Source: Nemertoderma westbladi (taxonomy: Eukaryota; Animalia; Xenacoelomorpha). Taken from it: a stretch of 64,000 bases of DNA. The position numbers and the translations under genes were made by a program. Under the pieces are notes generated by a model that searched no databases, was not told where the DNA came from, and worked only from the letters and a program-made list of their open reading frames with translations. Of the stretch, positions 11,463 through 38,046 are shown piece by piece (the first letter of the stretch is position 1; every line of letters starts with the position of its first letter). The DNA is taken from positions 32,889 to 96,888 of the forward strand of contig JAUCBJ010000097.1 in the NCBI GenBank assembly GCA_032718475.1. Reading direction: 5' to 3'.

Positions 11463-11607
11463 CCAAGTTTTGCTCCCAGTAATTCAACTGGTAATCATTT
11501 TATAGACCCCAGCGGATGAAAGGCTGATTGGATCCAGGCTGGGTTCGAACCTGCAACCAATAGATTGTAATCTCGGCGCTTAACCAACTGAGCTAGCTTG
11601 TCCGCCC
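11463..11607 (-). mobile_element. tRNA-derived SINE head and central domain
   Basis: Minus-strand A box TAGCTCAGTTGG and B box GGTTCGAACCC, then TCAGCCTTTCATCCGCTGGGGTCTATAAAATGATTACCAG, resembling a conserved SINE central domain. Confidence 0.75.
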
Positions 11608-11675
11608 ATATATTATATTGATTTTTACCTATATATATTTATTATTTTTAATCGGTTCCTATTTTTCTATTTCAG

Positions 11676-11773
11676 TGTGGAAATGGAGGTTGTCTTGTGG
11701 AATTAGCGCAGCAACTTGCAATTATTATGATAGGAAAACAATTCGTAAACAACTGCCAAGAAGTTTTTGTGCC
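11676..11773 (+). CDS. ANO: Anoctamin exon
   Basis: TTTCAG acceptor; CGNGGCLVELAQQLAIIMIGKQFVNNCQEVFV(P); GTGAGT donor. Confidence 0.95.
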
Positions 11774-11810
11774 GTGAGTAATAATTGGTACTCTATACAC
11801 TAAGACTTAT

Positions 11811-12982
11811 TGTAAAAGCTTTTGTGGGATAACTGATTCGTTTGCCTTGCTAACCAGTTCCCCCCAGTCGCTAGAATACTCTAAAAAGGGATCTATAACT
11901 CGAATAGCGCAAGCTACCGGCTGATTGGCTGATTCGCTGTGCGAAGGGATCTGGGCTACGTTTGATTGTCCAACCAGCTTGGGAAAGTATCTGCCTATAG
12001 GATTTGAGTTGATTTTGATTTCGACCTATCACAGATCTGCTGAACTGAATTTTCCTATCTTTATGCTCTTTCTCTGTGTTGGGTGGAAGCCTTTGTAAAT
12101 AAGGTTATTCTTATCAGTTTTCAGTGTTGTTGGTCTTTCTTTCCTAAGCCAGGAGAGAACGGCTTGTAAATATTTTGTGCTTTTCTGTTTTAGTCTAACA
12201 CTAGTAGGCTTAATTATAAAGGGCATATATCCGTTATCAAACTGATGCACAACACTTAATATCAAACTAATGAACTTAACGCACACTGAATTACTGTGCA
12301 TACTTTTATATTGTTATACTGCTATTTACTGTCAGTTCTTCATAATATGGTTGATGAATTATTATATTTGGAATAACGATAAATAACCCCGAAACCCAAT
12401 ATTCTTGATATACCGAAGGTAAGAGAGAAAGGTTACATATAACGATTGTGACTTATGTTAAAGTGGTTTGAAGTGAATCTAATGTTATTTGATAGACCCT
12501 ACATGAGTCGGTCCGTGTTCCTTTTATATATAACTAAAATCAGTGAAGATCGGCAGATCAGTGTGCAGTATTGTGCAGCATCGTGTATGAGTGATACTGA
12601 TAACGAAGCATTTCCTAAAGAATGCGCCATATATGTGAATTATAACTAAGCCATATCGTTGTGAGTAGTTTAAGTCATAACTCTGTTTATATAGATAGAG
12701 CGCCACGTCCTAAAGGAACTGTTAATATTCCCCGAAGGTGAATAATATTGTCAGAGATTATATAATACTGTCAGTCGAATAATACATTAGGCTTACATAG
12801 CAATAAAATTTAAGCCGTCGAACCCAATCTCCCGGGTATATCCAGCGGGTGAATGATCGCGCACTGATTGGTTTCGACTAGTGTAGTGAATTAAATACTT
12901 GTCATAGACTAAAGGTGATTTATTATCTAGAAGACATCCTAATTTGGCGGGTTAAACTGCCAAAGGTCTAAAAGCGCGAACA
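11811..12982 (+). repeat. 5' LTR of BEL element
   Basis: Direct repeat of 36629-37800; three substitutions seen by eye. Confidence 0.97.
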
Positions 12983-13004
12983 ATAACGGATATAGCTTCT
13001 TTAT
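12983..13004 (+). promoter_or_regulatory. Non-tRNA primer-binding site, complementary to LTR 12216-12237
   Basis: ATAACGGATATAGCTTCTTTAT has no TGG; pairs with ATAAAGGGCATATATCCGTTAT (12 perfect pairs adjacent to the LTR end; 18/22 Watson-Crick plus 2 G-U). Confidence 0.75.
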
Positions 13005-13049
13005 TGCAGTAAGCAATAAAGTTGAAAGTACCGGTCAACCGGTAAACCT

Positions 13050-13180
13050 GAACGGTACTTCAGTAGGTCAGTAGGCCCAACCGCCAGAACCGGTACTGCC
13101 GTAGGTCAGTAGGCCCAACTGCCAGAACCGGTACTTCTGTAGGTCCGTAGGCCTAACTGTCCTAACCGGTACTTCCGTAT
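13050..13180 (+). repeat. ~39-bp tandem repeats in BEL 5' leader
   Basis: aaccggtact..gtaggtc.gtaggcc.aac repeated 3-4 times. Confidence 0.8.
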
Positions 13181-13355
13181 AAGTACACTAGTATTATTCG
13201 ATTTGATTGTTGCATACCGGTAGGCTGTTTAAGGGATTAGGGATTGATCACCTCTTATTACTTTATATGGTTTACTTATTTCTGTCAAGTTTTATTTATT
13301 TGTAGGCCAGTATTGAACAGAAGGCGTGTAAGCCTGATCAGATTGTACAGACAAT

Positions 13356-13925
13356 TTGTAGGCTGAGCTGTTGTCTGATTGTTGTTAAGTCTGAACGGAT
13401 TGCAGTGTGCGTAGATCATCTGTCCGATAAAGAACGGTTAGGAAGTAGGGGCAGCGAATGCTGTAAGGTAAACCCACAACTAAAGAATAAGTCGTACTAC
13501 TGGGTTAGAACGCATACTACCTAATCATTTCGGAGTCTGCATGTCCTGTAGTTTATTTAGGCTTGAGAGTAGTCTGCCATCGTTTAGTCTGTACTTTGTT
13601 TGTGTAAGTCTGTACGGGTAGCGTATAATATTTATTTAGATAACTTGTAGGCTGAATAGTTGTCTGGCTGTTATTAGGTCTGAACGGATTGCAGTGTGTG
13701 TAGATCACCTGTCCGATAAAGAACGGTTAGGAAGTAGGGGCAGCGAATGCTGTAAGGTAAACCCCCAACTAAAGAATAAGTCGTACTACTGGGTTAGAAC
13801 GCATACTACCTAATCATTTCGGAGTCTGCATGTCCTGTAGTTTATTTAGGCTTGATAGTAGTCTGTCAGTATTTGGTCTACATTTTGTTTGAGTAGTTTG
13901 TACGCGTAGCGTAATATTTATTATT
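13356..13925 (+). repeat. ~289-bp tandem duplication in BEL 5' leader
   Basis: Copies start at 13356 and 13645 with a near-identical core. Confidence 0.9.
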
Positions 13926-15235: not shown

Positions 15236-17956
15236 ATGTCTGATACTAAGCAGAACCTGTCAGACAGTTTATTAGATGTAACTATCTGCGACTCAGATAG
15301 AGGCGTAGAACCGTCTAGTCGTAAGTTCAGTTCACCTCCCACTGTGAGGAAAGTCATCCCTCCAGTAGTAATAAAAGAACCTAGGCTGGTTCAACATCGT
15401 AGGTCTATCATAGGCACTCGAGCTCAGGTCAAACGGGACCAAGAAGCAGCGGAACAGCAACAACCCGCGAGCCAAGAACTTACTTCTCAACGGCCCGATA
15501 GCTCCAGTAGTGAAGATACGGTAGAACTGACACCCGAACGCGGAGCAAGGATGATGGATGAGGCTTATTCAGATCCCCTTCTCATCCTTCCTGCAGCCGT
15601 ACTCACTAGGTTATTGATCGCTGTGGAAGAACACCAGATCGATTGGGCGAGAAGCCAGCGTTCAACTAGAGATAGTTATGCGGGATACACGAGTGAAGAA
15701 CTGAAGTCTATTGTCGAGTCGCAATGGAACTTCCCCGGACCCGGACTCCCGTTTGATTTATCAGAAGCTGCCTGGGAAGACATACACCGGATGGGAGTAG
15801 CCAAAGAAACCATAGATCCCGCTGTGTGGAAGAGGTCCGCAGCCGGATACGCACAGGGATTCTTCAGCTCTATAGAGCGATTAAAAGAACAACTGTTTCA
15901 TCAACCTCAAGGACCTCAAGAGCAGGGATTGCTGCTTTATCAAGTTAGAGAAAGAATTCTACGAATCAGGCTAATCTTATCGGCCTTTGAGGAGGCTTCT
16001 AAACGAAGACAAGACACGTCGTTGCAAGTCGCCGTAAAGACTTGGTTTCAAAGGGTGAATCTCCAGGTTCAAGGAACAGCTCAGTGGAAAGCTCAGCTAG
16101 AGGAGCGATCAACCCATGGAGAATCAACAGACGCTACTTTTTCCCAAGTGGAAAGTGAAGCGACGGCAGAGAAACCGCATAAGAGGGATGCCATTGATAT
16201 CTATCTGTCAGACTATCAACGTTTTTTAGGTGATGACGAGTTGAGGAGAAGGTTAGAGGGGCTTACCCCTAATAGTGAAGGAACCAAGCTTGTGCTGGAT
16301 GCCATCGATGTGGAAATGAGAGCTGCGAACCAGGCTAAATTTGATGAACAACTCCGCATCACACGAGTCCAGGAGGAGCAAATCAAGAAAAAACGTATAG
16401 AAGACAGAAAGACAGTGGCAGTGACAGCAGCAGTGGCAGCGGCAGAAGCAGAAAGAAAAGCGGCAGTGGCAGCGGCAGAGGCAGAGGCAGAAGCCGAAAG
16501 AAAGGCGGCAGAGGCAGAGGCAGAAGCCGAAAGAAAAGTGGCAGCGGCAGCAGCCGAAGCAGAAAGAAAGGCGGCTGTAACAGCGGTCGAGGCAGTAGCA
16601 GAAGCAGAACGGAGAGCTTCCGAAGAAACCACCCAATTAGAATTGGAAAACATTCAGGAGAATCAAGACTGCATAAATAAACAGTTAACAGCTAGTAATA
16701 TGCAGATGATGAATCAATCTACTCCCAAAAGACAGGGATATACATCATCTGAGGAAGGCGATACCACCGATACTGAAGGCAAAGGAAATAGATCTCGTCT
16801 AAGCAGACGTAAAAGAACATTCCACTGTCAGAAATTGCCTGATTTGCCTCCAGCTGTTAGAAGGCAACTAAATAACACCAACTTAGGTAGTACAGAGCCC
16901 ACAGACCAAATAATTAAAATAGAAAGACTCCCTACTATAGTAGATGAGCCTGAAATAATTAGGCCTGTTCTTGAAATCACCCCTTCGGTGATAGACACAC
17001 CTTTGCTCCCTGAAACTACCTCTAAATTCCCTCTGCATAGCACTAAGCTACCTGTGCCCCGTAGAACTGCCCAGGGGACAGTTCAGGTCCTGGACCCCGA
17101 GCGAAATATTCATAATTTGTCGCCCGTTGTCCCTCGTCCGCCCGCTACAACGTTGGCGACTCCCGCTTCGGCGGTCGAATGGGTGGACGAGAGACGGCGG
17201 GGGATGGATATCCTGCTCGGGCAGATGCAGGAGACTGTCCAGCAATTCAAGGGCACAGTAAGGGAAAGTAGGCTAGAGTTGCAAGAAGTGCAGCAAAGTA
17301 TCGCGCTAGAACGCGATAAATTAGTAAATACTCAAAAGGGTATACTGCCACCCTCTGTAACAATGTGTCAACCTGTTAGGTCTGAAGTATCTCATGCGCA
17401 AGGTGTGGAGCCTACACGCATATATACTGCTAGCGAAGTAGAAACTCCTATAGTGAACCCTATTAAGGGTAATTATAGACCTGTTGATAATGACATTCCC
17501 TGCAGAACTGATCATAATCCGAGAAATTTATATACCGATAACTCGATATTAAATAACACGATGGCCCAAGAAAGTTTTACGCGTCAAATGGCTAGAACCG
17601 AAGCCCGGCAAGCGGTAAAGGTGGGAGAGATCGTCAAGTTCAATGGAGATGAGATGAAATGGTTACCTTTTAATGTATATTACAAAGATAACATACAGAA
17701 CTCTGTACTATCTAATGGAGAAAAACTTAGATACCTCATCGAGTGCTTGGAAGGATCTCCCAAGTTAATGGCGTTAAAGTTTATTGGACATCCAGACGGA
17801 TTAAGACAAGTTTGGGACACACTAAACATCAGGTATGGTAATAGGAATAATATCGCTAAGTATTTATATGCAAAATTAGTAGCGCCCAGAAAGTTCATCA
17901 GCAGTGGGATAATAGAGTTTTCCGATGAGATTCAAGAGATCTGTAGACAATTAGAT
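15236..17956 (+). CDS. gag: BEL gag-pol, part 1 (Gag N-terminus, Ala/Glu coiled coil, DUF1759-like)
   Basis: KFNGDEMKWLPF...LSNGEKLRYLIECLEG is typical of Pao Gag; interrupted by the Gypsy at 17957. Confidence 0.88.
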
Positions 17957-19164
17957 TGTGGAAGCGCTATCGGCGCCCGGTCCCGGATCCACGGCCACGC
18001 ACTATCCCGCTCGAGGGGTGAGCTGGAGAAGACTGAAGTGAAACTAGCTGCAGTATATCAGTATATTGTGTATTGAGTTGAGATACATGAATAACAAATA
18101 ATGATATGATACAATCAGACAATGAAACTAATAACGAACTACCTACAAAACATGACTGACAACCCTACACCGGTAAGTCATCTCAATAACTAAACTGAAT
18201 GATAACTGCTGACTGCGCCCTGCCCCCAGGACTATATCCCTGACAGCTACCGTACAACCAGCTGTTCTGTTCACACCCTAGGATACTACTATATCATACC
18301 TACTTAACCTATACAATACATACTAATCAGTCCAATAATACACCATCCCATAATACAATATCACATCCCCCCTTCTTAAAAAAAAAACTCGCCCACGAGT
18401 TTCTAGAACGCACAAACTACAAACCCCAAGTCTAATGACTACATCGACAAGTAAAGTCTACCTCAACGGCAGTATAGATACTGTATATGAAGCACGATAC
18501 CAACAATACATTCAACTAGCCTAAGGCCAATAATATCTAAATCGAAATTTCGTACTGCATGTATCGTAAGCCAGTATGACTAAAGAATAACACGTACAAC
18601 TCAATGAGTAACCAAATAACACTATATCAAGCATAATTGCAATCTATAAATCGCACCACCGTAAGTAACCGACCATAGTACAATCCATAAAATGTGTCAC
18701 TGCCACAATAAATCAAGGCTATATAAGTAAATAATTAATATGTGTATCTATCACATGAAAATGTATCCATACAGTATCTATCATAAACATGTATCCATCC
18801 ATACAGTATCTATCTATCCGTATCTTATGTAATAATAATACGTAATGACGTAACAAAAATATACAAAAAAATATATATGTTGGAGTTATGTACATAAGGT
18901 AAATAATAATACATACAGAATAGAGAATACTCTACAAAAGGTACATAACTGAGGCACAAAATATCTCGTGGGCGAATAACGGGTGAGAGCCGAGCAATGG
19001 AACGGAATTAAAAAAAATCACAATATCTAAATAATTCAGGATAACAATTTTTTTTTCCAAACAAAAGTTATTCATTGTTAATAAATGCAATTTATCTATG
19101 TAGCCATGGTAACCAGCAAACAGTCAAGTCACATCGACTACGTCTCTATAATTTGCGTCAACGG

Positions 19165-22100
19165 TCAACAGTCGCTATCGTCACCGTCGTAGACGTCCGC
19201 ACTGTCGTTCCCCCTACCTGTATCATCTCCCGTGGAGTTACTTTCTTCCCTATAGTATGGCTTTAAGTCCTTCACATTTACAATAATAAGTCGAGAACGT
19301 GGATTTGGTTTTCCCGATTTTCCCAACAGTTTAATGGCATAACTTGATTTACCAACCTGATCAACAATAGCATAAGGACCCCTAAACCTGAAGCTCAGCT
19401 TCGTATTCTTACCTTTGGTCGTCCTATCATAGTATAATACAGACTGCCCCTTAGTGTAGGTTCGAATGTTACTGCGTTGGCGCTTCCCCAGCTTACCATC
19501 GTGGTATTGTTTCTGTTTCACCTGTGTAAGCCTAAGAGCTTCCCTGGCTATCCCATGGGCCCGCTCCAAACGAAACCTTAATTCGTCTGCGAATGTTGCT
19601 TCATCTGCTAGCAAGCTGTACGGCCGGGCTATCTGCGTGTCTACTTGAGTTGTCGCCTGTCGCCCATACATTAAAGAGAAAGGAGTTTCCTTAAGTGTAC
19701 TCTGAATCGAAGTATTATAATTAAACGCAACAGCGGGAATAAACTCGTCCCAATTATGCGGGTTGGTAGCTGTCAACGATAACATGTTTACAGCTAACTG
19801 GTTAATGCGTTCTGTAAGACCATTGCAAGCTGGGTGGTATACCGACGTAAATACGGAAACAATACCAAACATTGCAGTTAATTCCTTGAATAAATTAGAC
19901 GTGAAATTACTACTCCTATCGCTTAATAAACTCTCGGGGGCGCCGTATATAAGAAAAATACCATCCACTAAAGCCCTGGCAACGGTAGCGGCTTCTTCAT
20001 TTGGTAACGGGAGGAGGGAAGCGTAACGAGTAAGATGATCAACTACTGTAAGGATAACCTTGTTACCTTTAGATGACGTCTGGAAGCCTTTAACGATATC
20101 AATTGAAAGGCGTTGCAAGACACGTTCAACGACTGGGAGAGGTGACAGTGGTTGGGTCTGAGGGACGCCCTTCCTACGCTGGCATGGGTCACATTCACGA
20201 ATGTGCTGCTTAACATTATCCTTTATACCTACCCAATAATACTTCATATGGATAGCACCTACCGTTTTATCAATACCCATGTGAGGCTTTTCATCGTGAC
20301 ACATGGATATAATTTGTTGCCTTAGTAACTTAGGAACTACAATCTGTACCTTCGATTTACCGTTACTTGTTGATAAATGGCAGAGTATATTGTCAACCAT
20401 AACATATTGTGCTCTAAATTTGAGCATGTAACGATACTCGTGTAGCGATTTGCGCACATCGGCATCGGCTATTGTAACAGCTGTGTCCAGTAATGTATCA
20501 ATCATAGGCTGTAAGTTATTGTCTTCTGATTGTAACTTACGCAAGGCAGTCAATGTGCAGTACTGTTGGCCGCCCGGAAGTGTCCAATTATTATTATTGT
20601 CATTATTGATAATGTATGTGACGTCACTATCGTGGTTGGGTCTGTCTGGGGAACTTAGAATGTCACATGGATTAGGTTTTGGCGGCTGCACGCCATTGTC
20701 TAGGTCCACCTCAACAGCGTTTGGTCTATCGCTATCATTATGTAGGTCTAAATTGGCTAGTCCTATCAAGCAATAATTATCTGACGAGACTGGGTCATTA
20801 TGCATAGGGGGAAGTAACGTATCCATGGCAACCGGTTCATTAGAAACGGTTTCGTCTCGTTGGTTGCCAGGGGTTACCTGTAATGGTATTCTAGAAAGAC
20901 AATCAGCGCGGTTAAGTCGGCCTGGCCTGTAAACAAAATTGAAATTAAATTCAGACAATTTAACGGCCCATCGCTGCAAACGCCCTGGAAGTTCGAGTTT
21001 GGTCTGTAAACAACTGAGTGGTTTATGATCCGAAACTAACGTAAATGCGCGGCCAATGAGGTAAAACCTGTGTTTCTGCATTGCCCAGACCACGGCTAAA
21101 GCCTCTAGCTCCGTAATGGACCACTTTCTCTCAGCGTTGCTTAGCGACCTCGATGAGTAAGCGATTACGCCCGAATCCTGATATAAAACAGCTCCTAAAG
21201 CTATACCGCTAGCGTCAGTCTCTAAGTAAAACGGCTGGTCGAAATCAGGGTGTTCTAGAATAGGGTTATTAATTAGGCGTTTCTTAAGGAATGTAAAAGC
21301 CTGCTCACAATCGCTTGTCCATACGAACTCTTGGTTTTTCCTTAACAACACGTTCAAGGGAGCTACAATCTTACCATAATCCTTAATAAATTTCCTATAG
21401 TAACCACATAATCCTAGGAAGCTATAAAGTTGCTTTGCATTGGCCGGTCGCGGAAAATCAACCATGGCTTGGACCTTATCCTTGTCCATATGCTGCCCTG
21501 AGCTATCTATCACATGGCCTAGGAATTTTACAGATGTCGCCCCGAACATGCACTTACTTGGTTTGAGCTTCAAGCCGAGATCGATAATTCTACGTAATAG
21601 AATGATAATAGTACTTACGTGGGTGTCCCATTCCCGGGTATACAGTATGACGTCATCGAGATAAACGAGAACGTACTCGATACCATGCAACGCTAATTGC
21701 ATAAGATTCTGGCAGCCAGAAGGGCTGGACTGGAGGCCAAAGGGCATTCTAACAAATTCGTAATGGCCACTATGTGTTACGAAAGCGGTTTTATGTGTAT
21801 CTTCAGCGGCTAAGGGTACCTGCCAAAACATCGATTTAAAATCGAGTGTCGTAAAATATTTGGGCCGTGCTGTGCCAATTTCCGACAACATTTCGTCTAT
21901 GCGCGGCAAAGGCCAAAATTGTGGCACAGCCGCAGCGTTAAGGCGGCGAAGATCAACGCAAAACCGCCACTTACCATCTTTTTTTTTACTTAATATTATT
22001 GGTGCCCCCCACTCACTGTTGCTAGGTTGAATAACACCTGCGGCTAACATATTGCCTACCTGTTTGTCAATCTCTTTCCTAAGCCCCATAGGTACTGTAC

Positions 22101-24633: not shown

Positions 24634-24802
24634 ACAGTGGAATAATCGTCAGAGACCCGCCACCCACAGTCTGACTGCCTGATGCAGTGATGGGTACGGT
24701 AGTTGGTCGTGGTAGCGATAGCCTGGTAGGCCAGACAGAGTTAGAGTACCTGTTGCCGGTAGCAGGTAGCGCGGTAGGCCTGTCAGACTGTCAGTTTCTC
24801 TT

Positions 24803-24820
24803 CTCCCGGACAAGCCCCCA
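24803..24820 (-). promoter_or_regulatory. tRNA-Pro primer-binding site of Gypsy element
   Basis: Minus strand TGGGGGCTTGTCCGGGAG versus canonical tRNA-Pro PBS TGGGGGCTCGTCCGGGAT. Confidence 0.88.
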
Positions 24821-25232
24821 TGTGGAAGCGCTATCGGCGCCCGGTCCCGGATCCACGGCCACGCACTATCCCGCTCGAGGGGTGAGCTGGAGAAGACTGA
24901 AGTGAAACTAGCTGCAGTATATCAGTATATTGTGTATTGAGTTGAGATACATGAATAACAAATAATGATATGATACAATCAGACAATGAAACTAATAACG
25001 AACTACCTACAAAACATGACTGACAACCCTACACCGGTAAGTCATCTCAATAACTAAACTGAATGATAACTGCTGACTGCGCCCTGCCCCCAGGACTATA
25101 TCCCTGACAGCTACCGTACAACCAGCTGTTCTGTTCACACCCTAGGATACTACTATATCATACCTACTTAACCTATACAATACATACTAATCAGTCCAAT
25201 AATACACCATCCCATAATACAATATCACAGAT

Positions 25233-28200
25233 TGGTTAGGTAAGTCTCATGAATACCAAAGTTCTATGGTCATTGGAGCTGTGGCTTCTACTTTACCGAA
25301 AGGTGGGGTAGGCACACGCTGGGATAAGAAAGTACTATATATGATGGAACAACAACGACGAGACCCTACCATGGCTGATCTCATGTCATTCTTGGATGGA
25401 GAAGTGAAATTGCAACTCCTCAAGCAGTCCCGAGAGAAGACACCGGAAAACAAGGTAAGTGAAAAACCCGTCTCTAGGAGAAAGGTAACACCAGTGTGTT
25501 ATACAGACGACGGCGAAAGCCAGACTTCTCCAGGAGAAGATAGCGGGAAAGACACTGATAGATCTTATTATGTCAATAAAATGCCTAAAGATCAGGTAAG
25601 TAAATTCAAGTCTCGAGCAAATGACAGGAGAGAACAGGTAAGAAAAACTCCTCCCACGTCTCCCAAGAGAATTCAGGTGAGAAAGCCCGAAGAAAAGGCA
25701 AGTGTACACAATGTGACTCAGAATAAGGTAAGTAACATCAAACCGAAATGTGCGCTGTGTGACGGGACCCACCATTTGAATAGGTGTGATGAATTTCTAA
25801 AGAAATCATTAACGGAGAGACGCGAAGTCATGTGGGATAAGCGGTTATGTTATAATTGCCTCAGACAAGGAGACCAACGGCGAACCTGTTTCTCTGACAT
25901 AAGGTGTGCAAAGTGTGGTGCGAAACATCATATCTTGTTGCACGCTGAATTCGATCGAAATAGTCCGAATCAGGTAAGTGATTCCGAGCTACATGTCCAA
26001 TTCAGTGATGTGAACGACACTGATCAATCTGAGATGGAAGGATTCTATACAGACGAGTTCTCCGACGAAAACGAATCCTGTTACATGATAAATACCGCAG
26101 TGTATCGAGCACTCACATATGAAAAGGATACAGACAACGACTTCACTCTAACTACTTCTGAGCGACAACCATCTTGGAAAGAGCCATCTTCCAATGTAGG
26201 GATCCGAGAGTTTCCTGTGGTGCAAGTAAGGGTTCACGGACCTAAGGGGAGTTATGTAGTGAACGCCCTCCTGGACTCCGGCAGCACAGGAACATTCATC
26301 GACAAAGAGCTAGCCGAAGATATATTTGCTGGACAACCCAAGTTCCAAACTAAGCTCAACATGTCCGGCATTATGCAAGTTTGGAAATCTACAATAACAG
26401 CTGATTATTATGTAGGCGCGTTGTCCACCCCACAAGACGAACTAGGAGAACATAGCATAAGGTCAGTGAAAATGGTGGCTATAAAGAACTTCGCTACTAC
26501 TCAAGCAGACCTTTATAATTGGGACGAGGATGAGAGCATCCAACATCTTAACATACCTCGATTCCAGACTGATTATCCTGGAGTGCAAATGCTCATCGGC
26601 CAAAACGCGCATGAGGCGCTGGAGACATTGGAAAAACGGCCTGCTCAACCGCAGCCACTACAGACCTATGCGGTAAGAACTAGAGTAGGTTGGTACTTTA
26701 CTGGCCCTTCCCGTAGAACACTCAAAGAAAGACTACCGCAAGAGCGCGTCTGCCAGGTGAGTGAATGGGAAGATGATACTAGTGAAGGAGACGATTTAAC
26801 TGAGGGAACCCCATACTCCTCAGATAACGACGACATTCACCAGCTTTTTGATGAGCAGAATACCATCGACCTCCTTAAGGAAAACGATGCTTGGCAAAAC
26901 CAAGTGAACTTATGTCAACTTCTTTATCCAACAGAACGGGAAGCTTATAACGACGAGTTAAATGACGTCATTGAGCGTCATAATGCCAAGACTCGGGATG
27001 AACATGCCGTACGATTCTTTACGCAAGAGGCGGTAGAGCCCAATTCCTACGATAAAGCCTTGTCGGTGGAAGAGGAAAGGGCCAAGCAGATCCAAGAGAC
27101 AACTACACGTTTCCTCAAAGATCAAGGTAGGTATGAAGTCGGTCTACCTTTCCGCAAGAAAGAACCGAAGTTCATCAATAACAGACCTTTGGCGGAAAAA
27201 AGAATCGCGCAACTCCATCGACGCCTTACGGCTAATTCTTCAGCTAAAGCAATGTATCAAACACAGCTGGAAAAATTTATTAGTAAGGGATACGCGGAGA
27301 GAGTACCGGAAGAAACACCTGTGACTGAAAGAACGTATTACTTAACTCACCATTACGTTCCTAAACCCGGTAAGCCACACGAAGTGAGAGTAGTGTTTGA
27401 TGGCTCCGCTCTTTACATGGGTCAATCCCTTAACTCTGAATTGTTACCCGGACCCAACTTGCTTCAATCTTTGTTGGGAATTCTTTTAAGATTGAGACAA
27501 TATTCGATTGCTTTCGCCTCCGATATAGAAGGCATGTTCTTACAAGTCAAGGTGTTGGATAGGGATCGGGATAGTCTACGATTTCTGTGGTGGCCCGAAG
27601 GAGACCTCAACCAGAAACCGGTGGAGTACTGGATGACCATCCAGGCCTTTGGGATAATCTCAAGCCCTTCCAACGCCTGTTCGGTAGTGCGTACCACTGC
27701 AGAGGACAACCGAGAGGCATTCTCTAAGGAAGTGATCGACAACATCAAGAGAGACATATATATGGACGACAATCTGAAGTCCCTCCCATCAGTTGAGGAA
27801 GCCATTGAGGTCGCTAAAGGAACGGTAGAGTGCTTAAAAAGAGGTGGGTTTCGATTAACGAAATTCACCAGCAACTCCCGTGAGTTTCTGGAGTCGATCC
27901 CTGCGGAAGATCGAGGAGCGAAAGATCTCGATTTAATCAAAGATGATCTGCCAGAAACCAAGACACTAGGCTTGAAATGGGACACAGAGCGAGATATCCT
28001 GTTTTTCCAGCTAAAACAGCGAGATAATCCAGTTCGAACCAAACGGATTTGCTTAAGTATACTGAGCACTTATTTCGATCCATTGGGATTTATTAGCCCA
28101 GTTATATTGATTGCTCATAGTTTGGTACAACAAATGTGGCTTGAAAACCACTCATGGGACGATCTACTTAAGGGAGAATTATTGAAGAAGTGGATGGAAT

Positions 28201-30644
28201 GGGAAGATTCTCTGCCGGCTATCGAGGATTTTATAATTTCCCGTTCATATTTTGGTCATGTTCTCCCTACGTATTCCTATCAACTCCATGTGTTTGGAGA
28301 CGCCAGCGATATGGGAATAGGTATAGTAGCCTACCTAAGAGTGGAAACTCCGGATGGAATCAAAGTCGCCTTGGTTACTTCTAAGGCATTAATCAACAAC
28401 AAGTTGAAAGTTCCTCGAGCGGAGTTAAAGGCGGCTCTATACGCTACAGCCATCGGCCGGAATGTAATGGAACAGATTGACTATCCATTAGAGAAAACTG
28501 TCTATTGGACCAACGCTTTACTCGTGTTAGAGTATATCACCAATGAAGTCTGTCAGTTCAGCGTCTTCGTTACCAACAGAGTAGCCATCATACTTAGTCG
28601 CACGACGATGGATCAATGGAGACATTGTCCCGGAACGATTAATCCAGCAGACATCGCTTCCAGGGGAGCGACTCCAAAGGAATTGGTAAATACTCCCGAA
28701 TGGTTAGGAGGACCTGACTTTCTCTACAGAGAAGAAGAAGAATGGCCTCCCCATCTCACAATAGCAGAAATCAGACAGGCCAAGGGAGCGGAGAAAGTTA
28801 AACCCAAAACTCGAGCGAGTAAATCGAAGTTGTTTAAACCTGCGGTTGATCTATCTGTATTATTTACTTCCGGAGAGGATGCTTTGGATCAGAAACCCAC
28901 CGCCACGGATAAAGAAGTCTTGGAAATCCGTGACAAGGATTGGAAATCTGGAATACCAGATGTCGCGCAAGGACACTCACCTCTCTTGCAGAGAGCGATA
29001 CGTCACTACAGTTCCTGGAATCGGCTCTGTAAAGCCGTCACCTATTTAAAACGATGTTTTCATCATCGTTACTCCGGGACAAAGACCAATAGTGATGATG
29101 CTCCATCAACATCTGCACGAGTCCATGTTGTTAAAGACCTTCCCCAATACAAGATATCCGACAGGTTTCTAAAGGAGAAGATCAGTTACCAGGAGCATGA
29201 TGAAACCAACAAACAGATGCTGAGACTCCTACAATGCTATGAGGATCCCGATAAGTATTTCCTGTTGTTAAGAAATCCGCAGATGCGCTTAAGGGATCGT
29301 TTCTCTAGTACCATGATAGATGGGTTAATACGTGTTGGAGGCAGGCTAACCAACGCCCCATTATCCTTTGACACTAAGTTTCCCATCCTCATTAGAAATC
29401 TTGACATACAAATCAAGATAATTGTAGATGTTCATAGCAAACTGTATCATGCTGGAAGAGAATGAGTTCTGAGCGAAATTCAAACTCGCTACTATTTTTA
29501 TAAACCCCGTAGGGCTCTGAACCAAGTTCTTAGGAACTGCATACCCTGTAGGAAAGCATTCAGTAGGCCTTTAACACAGCGAGAGGCAGAATTACCTAGG
29601 GAAAGAGTAAGCTTCTATGAACCACCCTTTACTAATACCGGTGTGGATTTATTTGGCCCTATTGAAGCATATCGTGCCCGGACTATAGTCAAGAGATGGT
29701 GTGTCATTTTCGTTTGTATGACTTGTAGAGCTATCCATCTCGATATGGTAAACGATCTATCCACCAACAGCTTCGTGTTGAGTTTACGACGACAGATCGC
29801 TCGCTTCGGAACCAGTAACACGATGAGATCGGATAAGGGAACGAACTTCATTGGCGCCAACAACGAAATTCAAGCTTACGTAAAGGACTGGAACAAAAGA
29901 CAGGTGGACGATCAGCTAAGGATAACAGCGTCTAGCTGGACCTTCAACGCCGCCGACGCCCCTTGGTGGGGAGGAAGTTGGGAGAGATTGATTAGGAGCG
30001 TGAAGACTGCGTTCCACTTTATTGTGCCTTGTCGCGCTTATCTCACCGACGAACTATTGCGGACGTTAATGGAGGAAATCGCCGCTTATCTCAATGAAAG
30101 ACCGCTTATGCCAGTCTCTTCAAGTCCTGATTCCCTGGAAGCGCTAACACCCGCGCACTTTCTACTGAAGAAACCCGTAGCCATGCTCCCACGATCGGAG
30201 ATCACAGACGGAGACGAGTACTGCCGTCGAACCTGGCAACTTATGCAGTTGCTATCCCGTCGTTTCGCTGACCATTTCGAGAAACATTACCTGCCCACTC
30301 TACAATTTCGAACTAAGTGGTTTGCACAGCAAGAAAACGTCAGCGCTGGAGACATGGTGCTTATTGTGGACCCCGATCTCCCACGTAAGCGATGGCAAAC
30401 AGGACGTATCATCGAGACTTATATCTCGAGCGATGGTTTGGTGCGATCAGTAGAGCTCGTCGTCATGCGGCGGAACTTTAAGAAACCAGGGATAGTCTTT
30501 GAGACTCAACAGCTCAATCGCCCAGTGGGTCGTTTATGTTTACTGGAAAGAGACAGAGAGCTCTCCGGAAACTATGGAAGGCAAGAAATTCTTCCCACGA
30601 CCACTTCCCTAATCCAACCGACATCTAGGGACTCCCCAACTTAA
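25233..30644 (+). pseudogene. pol: BEL gag-pol, part 2 (Zn knuckles, PR, RT, RNase H, IN) with premature stop at 29463-29465
   Basis: In frame with part 1 after removing the insert (RQLD|WLGK); LLDSGST, VRVVFDGS, YMDD, VFGDAS, PRAEL, GVDLFGP, SDKGTNF, GGSWERL; AGRE*VLSE is probably TGG>TGA. Confidence 0.92.
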
Positions 30645-32296: not shown

Positions 32297-35200
32297 ATGA
32301 CTGAATTAATAGAAGATGATCTTGGTATCAGGGAGAGATATACTCTACCTATACAAGCGTTTGTCGATAGCTTGATACGCGGCGACGCTGATCCAACTAC
32401 TACGGAGGACGATGGTCGTTATATCGAACCGCCAATGTCCCAGGAGCAACTTACGCGTGAATTGGACTATAGAAAGTTCACGGCTCGCTATACGCATCGT
32501 AATGGTATGTATATGGACTTCTTAACTACCGGCCACCCTATCGATTTACACGATACGGACGATGTAGACACCGAAAGGGAAATGGTTTTATTTAAATATC
32601 ATACCCAGCGGAGTCGAAACGATAAATCGAGAATAGAACACGAGAACTCTATTCGAAACAAACTCGAAAGAGAAGATGTTGAAGAACCCGATAAACGTAA
32701 CGGTTTCAACGATTATCTAGAATTCTTAAGAGAGACCTATCTCAATGTTGCCAGTGAACAAAACCTCGAAACTCGATATCCTCAAGGTATACATCCAGAT
32801 CCTATGATGGAACTCAAACGGCTCTATTTTACGATGATGTATCCTACTGCTGATCGACCGCTACCTGTCGTTCCAGATAGTTTCGAACAGATGGAGGAAT
32901 ATTGTAAAACTGGAGAGCGATCACCCGCGTTTCCTCTTCAAGACGTGCGTCTTTGGTATTACTGTGACGAATGCCCTAGACCTAACCAGCAAATCGAAAG
33001 GCATAAACATCCTCGGAGACGTTGCGCTAAACACAGTTTTACGCGATATACTTATGGGGGTTTCGAGCATAACCTTTTCGACGTATCACCTACGGTCGCG
33101 CGCCTTAAGCGATCATTGAATAAACCCATGATCAGAGTTCCGGAATACTCGGTCAGACCTCCCCATTCCCAAGTGATACCTCAAACTCTAGATCCTAATA
33201 GTATTACGGATCCTCCCGAACTGTACTCACTGTTCAAAGATCTGGTGTTACCTGAACAGTTGATTGGTGCCACTCCGGTAGTGGGTTCGTTGGATATTCG
33301 CCAACCTTACCTCGCTGGACTAGGACGCGGTCATCTAATATCACCGTTTAACCCCTACAACCGTCCTGGCCTTCCTCCGATCCAACCTGTTACAGAAGTC
33401 GAAGAGAGCGTGATACGAAATGCATTGGACGCTATTCGGCAGAAAATCGGAAAAGGAACTTACGATTGCTTGGAGAAACGTAAATTGCAACAACAAGTCC
33501 AAGCGGTGAAAGAACTAGCTTTACCCCAGTTCGATAGAGAAATACAAAATCTAGAGGAGGACATCGAACGTGGACGAACCTACTCTTTACAGGAATTCCT
33601 GGACGAGCGCTTGCAACAACAAGCGGAGGAAAATCAGCTCGAGGAGAGACATATAGAGCTGACTGAGAGGGAAGAAGCATCTTTAGCCCAACCAGAAGCT
33701 CAAATTCTTGTGACGGATCTCTATTCCAAAACGATTCTCCACCCCTCGATGGTTCCTCATTTTAAAGACAAGCTCTTTGCTACGGTACAGCCTCAACCGG
33801 TTAACACCGATCTCAGATCTCAAGAGCTCGTTGCTGACGCTCCCATGCTACAACGTCCACCCGTCGAGGCTGCTCGTGTCGATGGCGTACTTGTTGAGCC
33901 TCCGGACAATAGAGCGGATCTTGTCCGTCGCATGGTGCACGATGTTAACATACGCGCTAGACCTTTGCCGGACTCATTTTATGGAATTAAGGATCATCCT
34001 TATTACGTCAATTTAAAGCAATATTACATGGTAAAACCAGAAGATCCTACGCATAGTCTGAAGTTTCTACCATTGATCAATCCTCTCGACCTCGTCGAAC
34101 TCGAACAACTACAAAAACATCTAGATCAGCTAGTTAAATTAAACTCATTTCGAAAACCGTATAATATTTCCAGAATAGAGAAAGAAATATTACCCCCGTA
34201 CAATCTTGATGGATTCATTAAAACTCGATTGGTACACTGGAATCTTGACGTGTTATTCGAGGAAGAAAGAATAAAACGATATGGAGATGTGGAAACCTAT
34301 ACTACACAATGCTTAAAGTATAGAGATTTACCCAATGCTAGCGAATGCACTACTTTGTGGCATCCCGTGGGAATGACTCTCGAAAACGCCACTAAAGAAT
34401 GGAATGAGACTCTTAACGTTATCGAGATGTATGGCGTTGTTACTTATGACAACGAAGGTAGCGTTCCGGTGGGAGAACTAGGAACTACGCGAATGATACA
34501 TATACGAGGACTCGCTGGTTCTACCCACGTATTCACTCGAGCGTGTTCCGACATGATCGATTATTCTTTTGAAACCCTTACGGAGACACAAAAGAAACTT
34601 CGACATGGACAATTCGAGCTCGCGCAGCGTTACGTCACCGACACCGAGCGCAAACCGGCCATGGGTATCGACGGATCAATGTTACCCCAACCCGTGCTCG
34701 AAATGTTGTTTAACGAAAGAATCCTAAAAATCGGCTCAGCTGTTTATGGAGATCTCCAAAACGACTTCCGGAATATGGAAAACATTCCATACCCTTTCGT
34801 TGATACTCAGCTGATTGCTCCTTGGGCCGAAGGCCGAGGTTTCTTTCGCACTATGTATGCCAATACACCCAGCGACATTACTAAAGTACAACGGACGTCC
34901 ATCGGACATCTTGCCTTTCAAGAATATGGATGGAACTTCAAAGTTGGAAATCCTATCAATTACCAGCAGGTATATGGAGATCATTACTCCCGTTTATATT
35001 TTGACGGACCATTAACTGCGCCTGGTGCAGTATATAGCTTTATGAGTGTTCCACTTCGCCCTTCCTTAGCTATATACACGATCTTTGAAAACGCAGCACT
35101 TGCCGGTTGGCTAGCCGATGTGTGCAGTCGTACCATACGCGCTCACCCGTTAATACTTGGAACTAAACTCGCCAAGTTAGACGAACACAATAAGTTCATA

Positions 35201-36550
35201 CGTTTCGAATGTTTCCGGCGCTTTCTGACTCCGTTCCGTAACGTCGATAGTCAGTTCAAGGACCGCGCGCTGACCAAGCTCAGTCTTAGAGACTCAGCTG
35301 CGGAGAAACTGAGTAGCGCTGGATTTGCCGTCTTTCAAGACGTTTGTATACAGAACCTACATTCATCCGTTATACAAAGACCCCGAATATCTACAGGTTA
35401 TTCTGTCGTGGAAATACAGACAGTGGGTCCACTTACGGAAACCGACGCACCCACTTCGTCTATGCAGCTGGAGGATGAACCAGTATGCTTGGAATCAGAA
35501 GCGATTCAACCTACGGCTTCCCGGAGCAGTGACAATGATTATGTCATAGAGTGGTATCAAGGTCCACAGCGTCTCACAGCGTACGATTATCGACACGCCA
35601 ACTACGTTTCCCGAAAACGTTGTCGATTATGCGCATCGAGAGACCACTTCACTCCTCTAGACTCGAGCGTACCTTGTTCCTATTTCCTCAAACAACCGAT
35701 GATGGAAATATATTGTGCTTATTGCCGGCTTAATAACTCTCATATATTTGCCGTCTGCCCACAATTTATGACTCAATGTCACTACTGCCAACTTAAAGGA
35801 CATGAAAGTTACAATTGTCCCTTTAATCGCGATTTAGAGAGCGTAGACGAGATGATCACCCTGCGATACATCCGAGCTTGGGAAGCGAACGCCGATTTAC
35901 ATTGCGAATCCCGACATCGCTATTACCCTGGACGAGCTTACGAGGGAGTTTACGTGTTCCATCCTTATCTATTCGCGTCGATTGAACAGAAAACACACGT
36001 ACCAAGTTACGAGTTAATGAAGCGTGTTGGTGAGTGTATTTCCACCAAGTTTGTCAGGAAATACCTTAGAAACGTTAACCCTAATGATATAACCACATAT
36101 CACCTGATCAATTTTATCCGTCAGGACCCTGGGTATGGCGACATCTTTGTGAACTCGCATCCTGAACTACAGGAAATATCTCGGCGACCATATGAATATC
36201 GAACCCGAGAACGCGAGCTGGAGAGAACCATTAAACCGAGAAAGTTCCTCACCACTCACGGTCCACCCACCGCTAGTGTCCAGACGACCCGTCAAGGACC
36301 CGTAGGAGCTGCTGTCCTGAGACGCGCTCTAAAGGCCGTTAGACCTCACTCCACTGAGGTTGATATTAATCAACCAGGTACTTCGACCGGCGGGTATACC
36401 GATCGTAACCCTGCACCTTCTGATGCAATTATATTGCACCCTTCGCCTAGGAGCTACAGCCCTCCTCGTAAAGTGGCTCGCCCCAAAGAGAAAAGGACTC
36501 TTGCTAGCTTTAAAAAACTGCGTAAACGCCGTCCACGCAAGAAAGACTAA
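32297..36550 (+). CDS. Extra BEL ORF: 1417-aa protein with putative DEDDy (WRN/MUT-7/EXD-like) 3'-5' exonuclease, CCHC zinc knuckles and basic C-terminus
   Basis: Intact ORF between pol and 3' LTR; ExoI VVTYDNEG, ExoII LPQPVLEMLFNERILKIGSAVYGD, FVDTQLIA, SIGHLAFQEYGWNFK, ExoIII-like PLRPSLAIYTIFE; CHYCQLKGHESYNC; KKLRKRRPRKKD. Confidence 0.8.
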   Translation: MTELIEDDLGIRERYTLPIQAFVDSLIRGDADPTTTEDDGRYIEPPMSQEQLTRELDYRKFTARYTHRNGMYMDFLTTGHPIDLHDTDDVDTEREMVLFKYHTQRSRNDKSRIEHENSIRNKLEREDVEEPDKRNGFNDYLEFLRETYLNVASEQNLETRYPQGIHPDPMMELKRLYFTMMYPTADRPLPVVPDSFEQMEEYCKTGERSPAFPLQDVRLWYYCDECPRPNQQIERHKHPRRRCAKHSFTRYTYGGFEHNLFDVSPTVARLKRSLNKPMIRVPEYSVRPPHSQVIPQTLDPNSITDPPELYSLFKDLVLPEQLIGATPVVGSLDIRQPYLAGLGRGHLISPFNPYNRPGLPPIQPVTEVEESVIRNALDAIRQKIGKGTYDCLEKRKLQQQVQAVKELALPQFDREIQNLEEDIERGRTYSLQEFLDERLQQQAEENQLEERHIELTEREEASLAQPEAQILVTDLYSKTILHPSMVPHFKDKLFATVQPQPVNTDLRSQELVADAPMLQRPPVEAARVDGVLVEPPDNRADLVRRMVHDVNIRARPLPDSFYGIKDHPYYVNLKQYYMVKPEDPTHSLKFLPLINPLDLVELEQLQKHLDQLVKLNSFRKPYNISRIEKEILPPYNLDGFIKTRLVHWNLDVLFEEERIKRYGDVETYTTQCLKYRDLPNASECTTLWHPVGMTLENATKEWNETLNVIEMYGVVTYDNEGSVPVGELGTTRMIHIRGLAGSTHVFTRACSDMIDYSFETLTETQKKLRHGQFELAQRYVTDTERKPAMGIDGSMLPQPVLEMLFNERILKIGSAVYGDLQNDFRNMENIPYPFVDTQLIAPWAEGRGFFRTMYANTPSDITKVQRTSIGHLAFQEYGWNFKVGNPINYQQVYGDHYSRLYFDGPLTAPGAVYSFMSVPLRPSLAIYTIFENAALAGWLADVCSRTIRAHPLILGTKLAKLDEHNKFIRFECFRRFLTPFRNVDSQFKDRALTKLSLRDSAAEKLSSAGFAVFQDVCIQNLHSSVIQRPRISTGYSVVEIQTVGPLTETDAPTSSMQLEDEPVCLESEAIQPTASRSSDNDYVIEWYQGPQRLTAYDYRHANYVSRKRCRLCASRDHFTPLDSSVPCSYFLKQPMMEIYCAYCRLNNSHIFAVCPQFMTQCHYCQLKGHESYNCPFNRDLESVDEMITLRYIRAWEANADLHCESRHRYYPGRAYEGVYVFHPYLFASIEQKTHVPSYELMKRVGECISTKFVRKYLRNVNPNDITTYHLINFIRQDPGYGDIFVNSHPELQEISRRPYEYRTRERELERTIKPRKFLTTHGPPTASVQTTRQGPVGAAVLRRALKAVRPHSTEVDINQPGTSTGGYTDRNPAPSDAIILHPSPRSYSPPRKVARPKEKRTLASFKKLRKRRPRKKD

Positions 36551-36620
36551 TTGTTTAGAGTATTTATGTATATTAGAAATTGTGATTTCGTATATTTTAT
36601 AGACTTAAATCCCATTTTCT

Positions 36621-36628
36621 GGGAGCGG
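36621..36628 (+). promoter_or_regulatory. Polypurine tract of BEL element
   Basis: GGGAGCGG directly before the TG of the 3' LTR. Confidence 0.7.
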
Positions 36629-37800
36629 TGTAAAAGCTTTTGTGGGATAACTGATTCGTTTGCCTTGCTAACCAGTTCCCCCCAGTCGCTAGAATACTCT
36701 AAAAAGGGATCTATAACTCGAATAGCACAAGCTACCGGCTGATTGGCTGATTCGCTGTGCGAAGGGATCTGGGCTACGTTTGATTGTCCAACCAGCTTGG
36801 GAAAGTATCTGCCTATAGGATTTGAGTTGATTTTGATTTCGACCTATCACAGATCTACTGAACTGAATTTTCCTATCTTTATGCTCTTTCTCTGTGTTGG
36901 GTGGAAGCCTTTGTAAATAAGGTTATTCTTATCAGTTTTCAGTGTTGTTGGTCTTTCTTTCCTAAGCCAGGAGAGAACGGCTTGTAAATATTTTGTGCTT
37001 TTCTGTTTTAGTCTAACACTAGTAGGCTTAATTATAAAGGGCATATATCCGTTATCAAACTGATGCACAACACTTAATATCAAACTAATGAACTTAACGC
37101 ACACTGAATTACTGTGCATACTTTTATATTGTTATACTGCTATTTACTGTCAGTTCTTCATAATATGGTTGATGAATTATTATATTTGGAATAACGATAA
37201 ATAACCCCGAAACCCAATATTCTTGATATACCGAAGGTAAGAGAGAAAGGTTACATATAACGATTGTGACTTATGTTAAAGTGGTTTGAAGTGAATCTAA
37301 TGTTATTTGATAGACCCTACATGAGTCGGTCCGTGTTCCTTTTATATATAACTAAAATCAGTGAAGATCGGCAGATCAGTGTGCAGTATTGTGCAGCATC
37401 GTGTATGAGTGATACTGATAACGAAGCATTTCCTAAAGAATGCGCCATATATGTGAATTATAACTAAGCCATATCGTTGTGAGTAGTTTAAGTCATAACT
37501 CTGTTTATATAGATAGAGCGCCACGTCCTAAAGGAACTGTTAATATTCCCCGAAGGTGAATAATATTGTCAGAGATTATATAATACTGTCAGTCGAATAA
37601 TACATTAGGCTTACATAGCAATAAAATTTAAGCCGTCGAACCCAATCTCCCGGGTATATCCAGCGGGTGAATGATCGCGCACAGATTGGTTTCGACTAGT
37701 GTAGTGAATTAAATACTTGTCATAGACTAAAGGTGATTTATTATCTAGAAGACATCCTAATTTGGCGGGTTAAACTGCCAAAGGTCTAAAAGCGCGAACA
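36629..37800 (+). repeat. 3' LTR of BEL element
   Basis: Copy of 11811-12982 followed by TSD CTTAT. Confidence 0.97.
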
Positions 37801-38046
37801 CTTATTATTTAACAACAATTAATTTTATTCCTAGAGATATAACTACGATAATACTACGAGAATATAATAGTTACTAGTAGAAATTGTAATGCCAAGAAAA
37901 ATACAACAACGATGTATTAATTTTTTTGAAATAATATAGAAATCTAAAGAGAGTAGATCGTGAGAAGGAAAGTCAAAGGGAAATTACTCTTAACTCTATA
38001 GATTTCAACTATTTATTATTAACAATTATTTGTTTTTATTTCACAG

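Follow-up and report, generated by a model that had tools for sequence, protein, structure and literature searches.

We consider it rather likely that a large BEL/Pao retrotransposon, found in the 64,000-nucleotide stretch of DNA analysed here (the window), primes with its own RNA in the manner of Tf1, and that the nuclease predicted in its third open reading frame (ORF3) is a separately acquired accessory rather than the maker of the primer. A sequence-only reading of the window had tentatively joined a self-complementary primer-binding site and an element-encoded exonuclease into a single mechanism for primer maturation. Both components find backing in our analysis, but one integrated primer-exonuclease mechanism is unlikely, and the two are probably separate traits.

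All features are on the forward strand unless stated otherwise. The primer-binding site (12983..12994) lies flush with the end of the 5′ long terminal repeat (LTR), and no TGG is found at offsets 0-3 after the LTR of this BEL/Pao element. The 12 nt that follow the LTR are the perfect complement of 12226..12237, the predicted self-primer; this 12-nt self-complement has only two places in the window, 12226-12237 and 37044-37055, the latter being the copy of the segment in the 3′ LTR. Matches of at least 12 nt arose in 3 of 5000 dinucleotide shuffles, and the self-complementary site that had been claimed is therefore borne out. The Ty3/Gypsy element nested within the retrotransposon, by comparison, has an ordinary TGG primer site and no self-complement (best 3-4 nt). 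The 22-bp duplex claimed for the site fares less well. Its 22 positions comprise 18 Watson-Crick pairs, 2 G-U pairs, and 2 mismatches, and the helix predicted in cis amounts to about 16 pairs (12 plus 4 beyond a bulge); the outer 6 pairs form with a probability of 0.02-0.03, because 12999..13021, immediately 3′ of the site, folds into a predicted 9-bp hairpin of its own. In pairing energy, the 25-mer after the LTR is outside the 15 strongest of the 444 leader 25-mers matched against the LTR. What sets the self-complement apart is where exactly it lies and that it is conserved, not its energy. A primer formed across a splice junction in this element's own LTR was considered and rejected (best 4 nt), and four loci from a metagenome pattern scan were discarded as chance, since they match the window over the 22-base pattern alone. 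A search of Rfam over 11400-13400 returned 7 matches, all far under the gathering score.

Variation within the family was read from contigs of four public runs, organism B included. In all four, a block of about 50 bases in the LTR (12188..12238) is common to copies that are unlike on both flanks, and its 3′ edge, at 12236-12238, coincides with the predicted primer end. Its 5′ edge reads TTTTAG/TC, which we take to be either an initiator-like start or a splice acceptor. Within the family, a T/A exchange at 12237 is mirrored by an A/T exchange at 12983. Contigs that depart from the reference beyond 12236 go on with A in X1 (the majority cell of 8 contigs), X3 (1), and X4 (1), and T replaces A at 12983 in 48%, 43%, and 74% of the depth of X1, X3, and X4, respectively; because separate contigs carry the two halves of the exchange, their linkage is inferred. 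In X5, T at 12983 accounts for 0 of a depth of 384, and the main block contig departs from the reference at 12237. At 12987, A replaces C in 53% of the depth in X1 and 55% in X3, about half of the family depth; its partner change would fall at 12233, inside the 50-base block, where substitutions are not listed in the comparison and hence not visible. The 12987 variant, lacking a visible partner, and run X5, lacking T at 12983, both speak against self-priming. The self-priming that had been claimed thus stands as a prediction backed by position, conservation, and one apparently compensated exchange.

The element spans 11811-37800 (25,990 bp) and is flanked by a 5-bp target site duplication, CTTAT (left copy 11806..11810, right copy 37801..37805). 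Its 1172-bp LTRs, with TG...CA ends, lie at 11811..12982 and 36629..37800 and differ at 3 positions. Between them are a leader of about 2.25 kb (12983-15235), a first part of gag with DUF1759 (15236..17956), the remainder of gag together with pol (25230..30644; protease, RT, RNase H, and integrase, with Peptidase_A17 and DUF5641), ORF3, and a short purine-rich tract ahead of the 3′ LTR (36621..36628). The gag gene is split by the nested element (17957..25229, reverse strand; 7,273 bp), which has identical 409-bp LTRs and an intact 1827-codon frame and whose subtraction leaves about 18.7 kb net. Recomputed in this way, the sizes agree with the large BEL element that had been described (~18.7 kb net, 1.2-kb LTRs, 2.2-kb leader). 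An in-frame stop interrupts pol at 29463-29465, and this copy departs from the residue that 120 of 120 relatives share at an RNase H catalytic position near 28512; the element is a young but broken retrotransposon. The alteration counts against a self-priming cycle that uses RNase H.

The order PR-RT-RH-IN between LTRs agrees with BEL/Pao, and the element's pol is 38-44% identical to BEL pol proteins (E 1e-139 to 1e-125), the 120 matches listed all being PF05380 proteins, from cnidarians, echinoderms, molluscs, and fish. It shares with the Belpaoviridae the LTR-gag-pol plan with PR-RT-RH-IN order, the Pao-specific domains Peptidase_A17, DUF1759, and DUF5641, an LTR of 1.17 kb (0.2-1.2 kb in the profile of the family), and the 5-bp duplication, but differs in its length (4.2-10 kb in the family, about 18.7 kb net here), in lacking an 18-nt site able to pair with the 3′ terminus of tRNA-Arg or tRNA-Gly, and in a third gene that is nuclease-like rather than env-like (PMC8742986). 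In an LTR complement of 11-12 nt and the absence of a tRNA it resembles Tf1, Tf2, Tj1, and the Tf1/sushi group (PMC7175516, PMC4600332). Those elements are Ty3/Gypsy, however, whereas the pol found here is BEL/Pao, and the start and the cut are only predicted here; the element would work like Tf1 without belonging to the Tf1/sushi chromovirus clade.

ORF3 (32297..36550; 1417 aa), which has a possible splice acceptor just before its ATG, contains a predicted RNase D/EXD-like exonuclease domain of the DEDDy type (34388..35161) and, further on, three Cys/His clusters (35621..35818), the last two of which are nucleocapsid-like zinc knuckles (profile A1 against the HIV-1 nucleocapsid, E 0.002). The ORF has no Pfam match and no transmembrane stretch, and its first ~700 aa are without assignment, the N-terminal 668 aa giving no usable match in the Atlas. 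For the exonuclease domain, the Atlas gave 0.91 to PF01612 clusters, and EXD2, NrnC, Exd1, Nibbler, and Egalitarian accounted for 13 of the 15 best Foldseek rows, none of them at E ≤ 0.001 and all obtained with a model of pLDDT 37. The best single exonuclease match had an E of 0.075 by profile and 0.22 by fold with that model, neither of which is significant, and a single-sequence fold was unusable (pLDDT 31). In the 50% library, 2 proteins were matched by the exonuclease region; other homolog searches with it found nothing new but were length-limited, so that absence is not implied, and viral contigs scanned with pol, a pol profile, and an exonuclease profile gave no match. The ExoI DxE and ExoII D motifs are present, and the four acidic positions of the motif, near 34448, 34454, 34751, and 35087, read D-E-D-E, ExoIII being YxxxE in ORF3 and in P0001 and the canonical YxxxD in P0002. 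The sequence, language-model, and fold matches to cellular EXD1/EXD2, Egalitarian, Nibbler, WRN, and RNase D are each weak and all concordant, and they support a remote RNase D/EXD-like exonuclease domain in ORF3, giving the claimed exonuclease the standing of a predicted activity.

Whether such a domain would be active is a separate matter. The fold may be catalytically dead and serve only to bind RNA, like EXD1, Egalitarian, and Maelstrom, an alternative that would fit the self-priming reading and that we regard as possible but not the likelier case. The fourth motif position is Glu and not Asp in both ORF3 and P0001, the structures closest to the pLDDT 37 model include Egalitarian and Exd1, and inactive DEDD derivatives are noted in piRNA biology (PMC5408684); against this, all four positions are acidic, P0002 retains the canonical YxxxD, and the frame is open over 1417 codons. 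As a separately acquired accessory, ORF3 would likely be translated from a spliced transcript, as env genes are, and would likely bind or trim RNA 3′ ends. Its role might most plausibly be to counter small-RNA silencing or to take part in the maturation of the RNA particle, which is the weakest step of the proposal.

Fold predictions for RNAs with different starts bear on how the self-primer could operate: starts at 12192-12226 give a predicted pairing of 0.91-0.98, against 0.00-0.16 for the 8 starts placed at 11850-12175. We propose that the conserved block supplies the start of the RNA, at about 12192, either by initiation or by splicing, and that bases 12226-12237 then pair back with the primer-binding site. 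From the primer end to the next poly(A) hexamer, the first AATAAA 3′ of it and the likely poly(A) signal (12802..12807), there are 564 bases, and an internal cut is therefore needed; it would fall just past 12237, with RNase H of the element as the most likely agent, and would free the 3′-OH. Plus-strand copying of the primer would rewrite the binding site in each cycle, so that primer and site would stay in register.

A TATAAA at 12215-12220, inside the conserved block, argues against this start: as a promoter box it would put the start 3′ of the primer. If transcription began near 12245, the primer would belong to U3 and be present only at the 3′ end of the RNA (37044-37055), where its pairing with the binding site would circularise the RNA and priming would need some 600 bases taken off the poly(A) end. 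A conserved promoter could account for the conserved block, but variability is highest in the would-be start region, just after 12238, a single A of the run is absent from 6-36% of the depth, depending on the public run, and trimming R off would remove the strand-transfer landing site on that RNA. We therefore hold this alternative to be unlikely.

The relation between self-priming and ORF3 was examined in 16 loci of BEL relatives, 10 of which could be scored for the primer; L010, L012, L015, L016, L018, and L020 were left out, having no scorable LTR-to-leader junction. The LTR end of L013 was picked by eye, the LTR of L009 is truncated, L017 represents a collapsed circle containing 100 N, and the criteria of the splice search were relaxed once, following a first pass. 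None of the 10 has a TGG primer site, and the tRNA site of the ICTV profile is therefore not universal in BEL/Pao. In six of them, an 11-nt self-primer spans a predicted splice junction (0-2 of 300 shuffles for each); in L005, L008, L011, and L019 no match above chance was found at offsets 0-3. The differences between L006 and L007 in the junction duplex fall at corresponding positions of its two sides. The spliced primers lie 0-33 bases from the poly(A) hexamer, as against 564 bases in the window element, a difference that, together with their distance, counts against our reading. In all six self-primer relatives, the gap from integrase to the 3′ LTR is 131-354 bases, into which ORF3 cannot fit, and the exonuclease profile matched 0 of the 16 loci. 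Self-priming relatives that lack the ORF, the case named beforehand as telling against a joint mechanism, were thus found in 6/6, and the two traits are probably separate.

The joint mechanism nevertheless has a form that deserves weighing. In a giant BEL/Pao lineage, a spliced, poly(A)-proximal primer would have given way to a contiguous one deep in a long R, and a captured exonuclease would finish its 3′ end, a scenario to which we attach little probability; that ORF3 does the finishing, by trimming either a longer 3′ tail, the product of a loose internal cut or of a short LTR transcript, to the duplex end at 12237 or the overhang that copying of a 46-nt primer leaves on plus-strand DNA, appears very unlikely too. 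Self-complement and nuclease do co-occur in one element, the primer is unspliced and distant from the poly(A) hexamer, unlike those of the relatives, the nucleocapsid-like knuckles could carry ORF3 into the particle, its four acidic motif positions are present, and one RNase H catalytic position is changed. That change, however, occurs in a copy that a nested insertion and an in-frame stop also disrupt, and other steps of the retroelement cycle require RNase H. An exonuclease would also have to start from an exposed 3′ end, and the 5′ LTR segment offers none unless it is first cut internally, and the absence of ORF3 in 6/6 self-priming relatives means that self-priming needs no ORF3. Exonuclease ORF3s also occur in Gypsy-type and Penelope-like elements (PMC5408684). 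The BEL relatives are only distantly related, at 37-40% identity in RT-RNase H, and the window element sits on a long branch of the tree, which leaves room for a lineage-specific role of the nuclease; the tree, being quick and unrooted, does not give the order of events. If true, finishing by a captured exonuclease would make this the first retroelement to have a nuclease devoted to maturing its primer.

Priming by a host RNA (a half-tRNA or other small RNA), with the LTR complement reduced to a regulatory or structural pairing, draws on the half-tRNA priming of Copia lineages (PMC6317226) and on the 12987 variant without a visible partner change, but it is improbable, given that the first base of the site is A or T within the family, apparently mirrored in the LTR, and that the sites of the relatives differ, each matching its own LTR, as a conserved host RNA would not bring about.

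DEDDy exonuclease ORF3s have been described in the bdelloid elements Juno and Vesta and in Athena/Terminons (PMC5408684, PMC6431247), and they move between unrelated retroelements, Penelope-like ones included (PMC5408684). They share with the ORF3 analysed here an RNase D-like domain at the env position, nearby Cys/His motifs, an altered DEDD motif, and a function that is predicted alone. The present ORF3 differs in its BEL/Pao host, in its 1417 aa with a 700-aa unassigned N-terminus, and in reading D-E-D-E where the rotifer proteins have DEED, a comparison drawn from the published description (PMC5408684); in the available text of that source, the primer sites of ORF3-bearing elements are not given (0 mentions of PBS). 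In the literature searched, published DEDDy-like ORF3s came only from Gypsy-type and Penelope-like rotifer elements, and no paper on self-priming or an exonuclease ORF in BEL/Pao was found, subscription journals and Repbase reports being outside the scope. A BEL/Pao carrier of a DEDDy-like ORF3 widens this shared gene pool.

Replication of BEL/Pao elements is listed in the ICTV profile as primed by host tRNA (PMC8742986). Self-primer signatures now appear in two architectures, contiguous in the window element and across a predicted splice junction in 6 of the 10 scorable relatives, which suggests that tRNA-free priming is common in one BEL/Pao branch. With its high copy number and two primer-site variants, the family is tractable for mapping the self-primer and for testing retroelement exonucleases.

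The BEL/Pao LTR retrotransposon at 11811–37800, the single such element reported in the window, has an LTR pair of 1172 bp that starts with TG, ends with CA, and differs at three positions, and CTTAT flanks it on either side. The Pao-specific domains DUF1759, Peptidase_A17, and DUF5641 were found in it with Pfam, and its RT–RNase H is 38–44% identical to BEL proteins (120 listed), the named ones among these coming from cnidarians, echinoderms, molluscs, a brachiopod, and fish. A Ty3/Gypsy element with identical 409-bp LTRs is nested inside gag on the minus strand (17957–25229). Without this insertion the element measures about 18.7 kb, whereas the ICTV profile gives 4.2–10 kb for BEL/Pao (PMC8742986), and the sequence-only reading was thus right to describe an unusually large BEL element with ~1.2-kb LTRs. 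The window copy is broken, because it carries the nested insertion, an in-frame stop (29463–29465), and a change near 28512 at a catalytic residue of RNase H, a position that all of 120/120 relatives keep. The nested Gypsy has an intact frame, opening with 6.6 copies of a 39-bp repeat (24136–24393), and a target duplication that is only 3 bp long with its LTRs read as TG...CA and 4 bp long when a terminal base is assigned to the target. Tandem and direct repeats also occupy the leader of the BEL element (13053–13179, 13349–13922, and 14858–15083, with 38-bp, 289-bp, and 123-bp units) and the 1.6-kb spacer before ORF3 (31189–31505).

The retrotransposon would be located in the intron preceding a host exon that ends at ~38183. 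The last residues of this exon, for which 45 aa gave no Pfam match, resemble an anoctamin/TMEM16 motif. A 22-bp unit that spans the end of the exon together with its GT splice donor follows in 754 tandem copies, so that potential 5' splice sites are repeated over 16.5 kb; exon and array lie within 38048–54720. Satellite arrays lie directly upstream of the element (3587–7088, 37-bp × 94; 7651–11461, 36-bp × 106), followed by a tRNA-like SINE remnant suspected by eye at ~11525–11597 on the minus strand, where ARAGORN found no tRNA. Two inverted copies of a LINE-like fragment (DUF6451), 96% alike, lie at 2043–2795 and 59481–60237.

No TGG start was found in the bases directly 3' of the 5' LTR. 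Instead, positions 12983–12994 are, at zero offset, the perfect complement of LTR positions 12226–12237, and a match of at least 12 nt arose in only 3/5000 dinucleotide shuffles of the LTR with four offsets allowed; the nested Gypsy, used as a control, has a TGG site and a self-complement of just 3–4 nt. The proposed pairing of LTR and binding site in place of a tRNA-type site is therefore upheld, but the accompanying 22-bp duplex is not, as it consists of 18 Watson–Crick pairs, two G–U pairs, and two mismatches. In the cis fold, the outer six pairs have a probability of 0.02–0.03, because 12999–13021 folds as a hairpin, and the remaining helix comprises 12 pairs plus four past a bulge. Pairing energy alone does not single out the binding site: of 444 leader 25-mers, 15 or more find a stronger partner in the LTR than the binding-site 25-mer does. 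Self-priming has been published for Tf1/sushi, Tcn1, and the Copia TAR lineage, according to PMC6317226, whereas the ICTV profile lists tRNA priming for BEL/Pao (PMC8742986). Our literature search, with most subscription papers and Repbase reports outside its scope, found no report of BEL/Pao self-priming or of a BEL/Pao exonuclease ORF.

Copies of the family were compared in four of seven listed public sequencing runs (X1, X3, X4, and X5), all as contigs. The family is deeply covered and varied in organism A, and it also occurs in organism B. An LTR block from 12188 to 12236–12238, whose 3' edge coincides with the predicted primer end, recurs in contigs that diverge from the reference on one or both sides of it; in X4, two records (370 and 609 bases) match the reference solely over this block. 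Among copies, 12240–12325 and 11871–12187 vary strongly while 12327–12982 is common to them, as if the family exchanged or quickly altered the LTR parts on either side of the block. In terms of summed contig depth, which is not copy number, T replaces A at 12983 in 48% of X1, 43% of X3, 74% of X4, and 0 of depth 384 in X5, and A replaces C at 12987 in 53%, 55%, and 74% of X1, X3, and X4, respectively. Contigs that depart from the reference after 12236 read A next (the majority cell of eight contigs in X1, one contig each in X3 and X4), which is the partner required by T at 12983; apparently, 12237/12983 is one compensated exchange with its two sides on separate contigs. The LTR partner of 12987 is 12233, within the block, whose records carry 1–4 internal differences that are not itemised as individual substitutions.

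The 5' edge of the block reads TTTTAG/TC (12188–12195), which would suit either an initiator-like start, with the A at 12192, or a splice acceptor preceded by a stretch of pyrimidines; on either reading, the primer would fall in the 5' portion of the transcript. When RNAs were folded to 13100, mean pairing of the 12-mer was 0.91–0.98 with the four starts placed between 12192 and 12226, compared to 0.00–0.16 with eight starts between 11850 and 12175. This preference for starts at 12192–12226 is a hint, because long-range folds are fragile. If TATAAA at 12215 were instead the promoter box, the start would fall beyond the primer and within the most variable LTR stretch.

In Tf1 (PMC7175516), the first 11 bases anneal to the binding site, with RNase H cleaving the RNA between bases 11 and 12. 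A scheme of this type fits the window element, with the difference that the primer would lie about 35–46 bases into the RNA. The sequence-only reading had a 3'–5' exonuclease trim the RNA to leave a 3'-OH after 12237, yet on the 5' copy such an enzyme could reach that position only if the RNA had first been cut internally, and reaching it on the 3' copy would take the removal of ~600 bases, including the strand-transfer repeat.

The putative exonuclease is ORF3, which stays open for 1417 codons in the env position (32297–36550) and has neither a Pfam match nor a hydrophobic span. In a library of 1.84 billion proteins it matched two, P0001 (E 1.5e-7) and P0002 (E 8.5e-4), and in each of these a nuclease-like domain and Cys/His clusters are arranged as in ORF3. 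The domain scored 0.91 to PF01612 3'–5' exonuclease clusters in Atlas, where 10/10 family-bearing matches fall in one family or clan. Profile matches were to Egalitarian (E 0.075), EXD2 (E 0.084), and RNase D (E 1.8), and a Foldseek search with a low-confidence model (pLDDT 37) returned EXD2, NrnC, Exd1, Nibbler, or Egalitarian in 13 of the top 15 rows, none significant. The motifs are DxE, D, and YxxxE, the third being YxxxE in P0001 and YxxxD in P0002. In our judgement, an RNase D/EXD-like 3'–5' exonuclease fold is very likely, and the predicted nuclease is probably active. The element-encoded exonuclease thus stands as a fold assignment, through the Atlas score and the concordant weak matches, but its proposed role in making the primer is unlikely, the ORF being found in 0/6 self-priming relatives.

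These relatives come from a scan of genome contigs for BEL pol, which gave 16 loci (32–44% identity); their record titles name bacterial metagenome bins, so they are probably host DNA. The LTR-to-leader junction was scorable in ten, none of which has a TGG primer site. Six (L006, 7498–8268; L007, 7014–7876; L009, L013, L014, and L017) have an 11-nt self-complement, visible only once a GT–AG intron in the LTR is removed, so that the predicted primer spans an exon–exon junction inside the LTR; 0–2 of 300 shuffles reached such a match in each. The close relatives L006 and L007 differ at matching positions of exon end and binding site. The six primers are predicted to end 0–33 bases before a poly(A) hexamer, whereas that of the window element is contiguous and ends 564 bases before the next one. 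L019 has a 12-base match to its predicted LTR splice junction, seen by eye at 4678–4700, ~8 bases past the apparent LTR end, and was left out of the count as that end is ambiguous. L017 has an additional 239-codon frame in its LTR-to-gag interval (4231–4947, plus strand), which resembles an esterase by eye and has no Pfam match above cut-off. The six relatives are distant from the window element (37–40% identical), whose branch is long in a rapidly built, unrooted tree.

From integrase match to 3' LTR there are 131–354 bases in all six self-priming relatives, compared to 5985 in the window element, although the L007 integrase match ends early and the L017 gap contains 100 N; none of the 16 loci matched the exonuclease profile. 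As far as these sequences indicate, the nuclease is dispensable for self-priming in BEL elements, because the six lack space for ORF3 and no locus matches its profile; the sequence-only reading had itself named self-priming relatives without the ORF as the result that would refute its model. This, together with the cut needed on the 5' copy and the ~600 bases to be trimmed on the 3' copy, makes an integrated primer–exonuclease system, in which the ORF3 exonuclease would finish the self-primer, unlikely. According to PMC5408684, DEDDy ORF3s, like the window ORF3 exonuclease-type genes in retroelements, are common to unrelated rotifer retroelements, and the authors propose roles in RNA 3'-end processing or silencing. 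Given the limits on exonuclease access and the passage of DEDDy ORF3s among unrelated retroelements, ORF3 is probably an accessory independent of self-priming, and Tf1-like self-priming combined with such an accessory is, on balance, the explanation we favor for the element as a whole.
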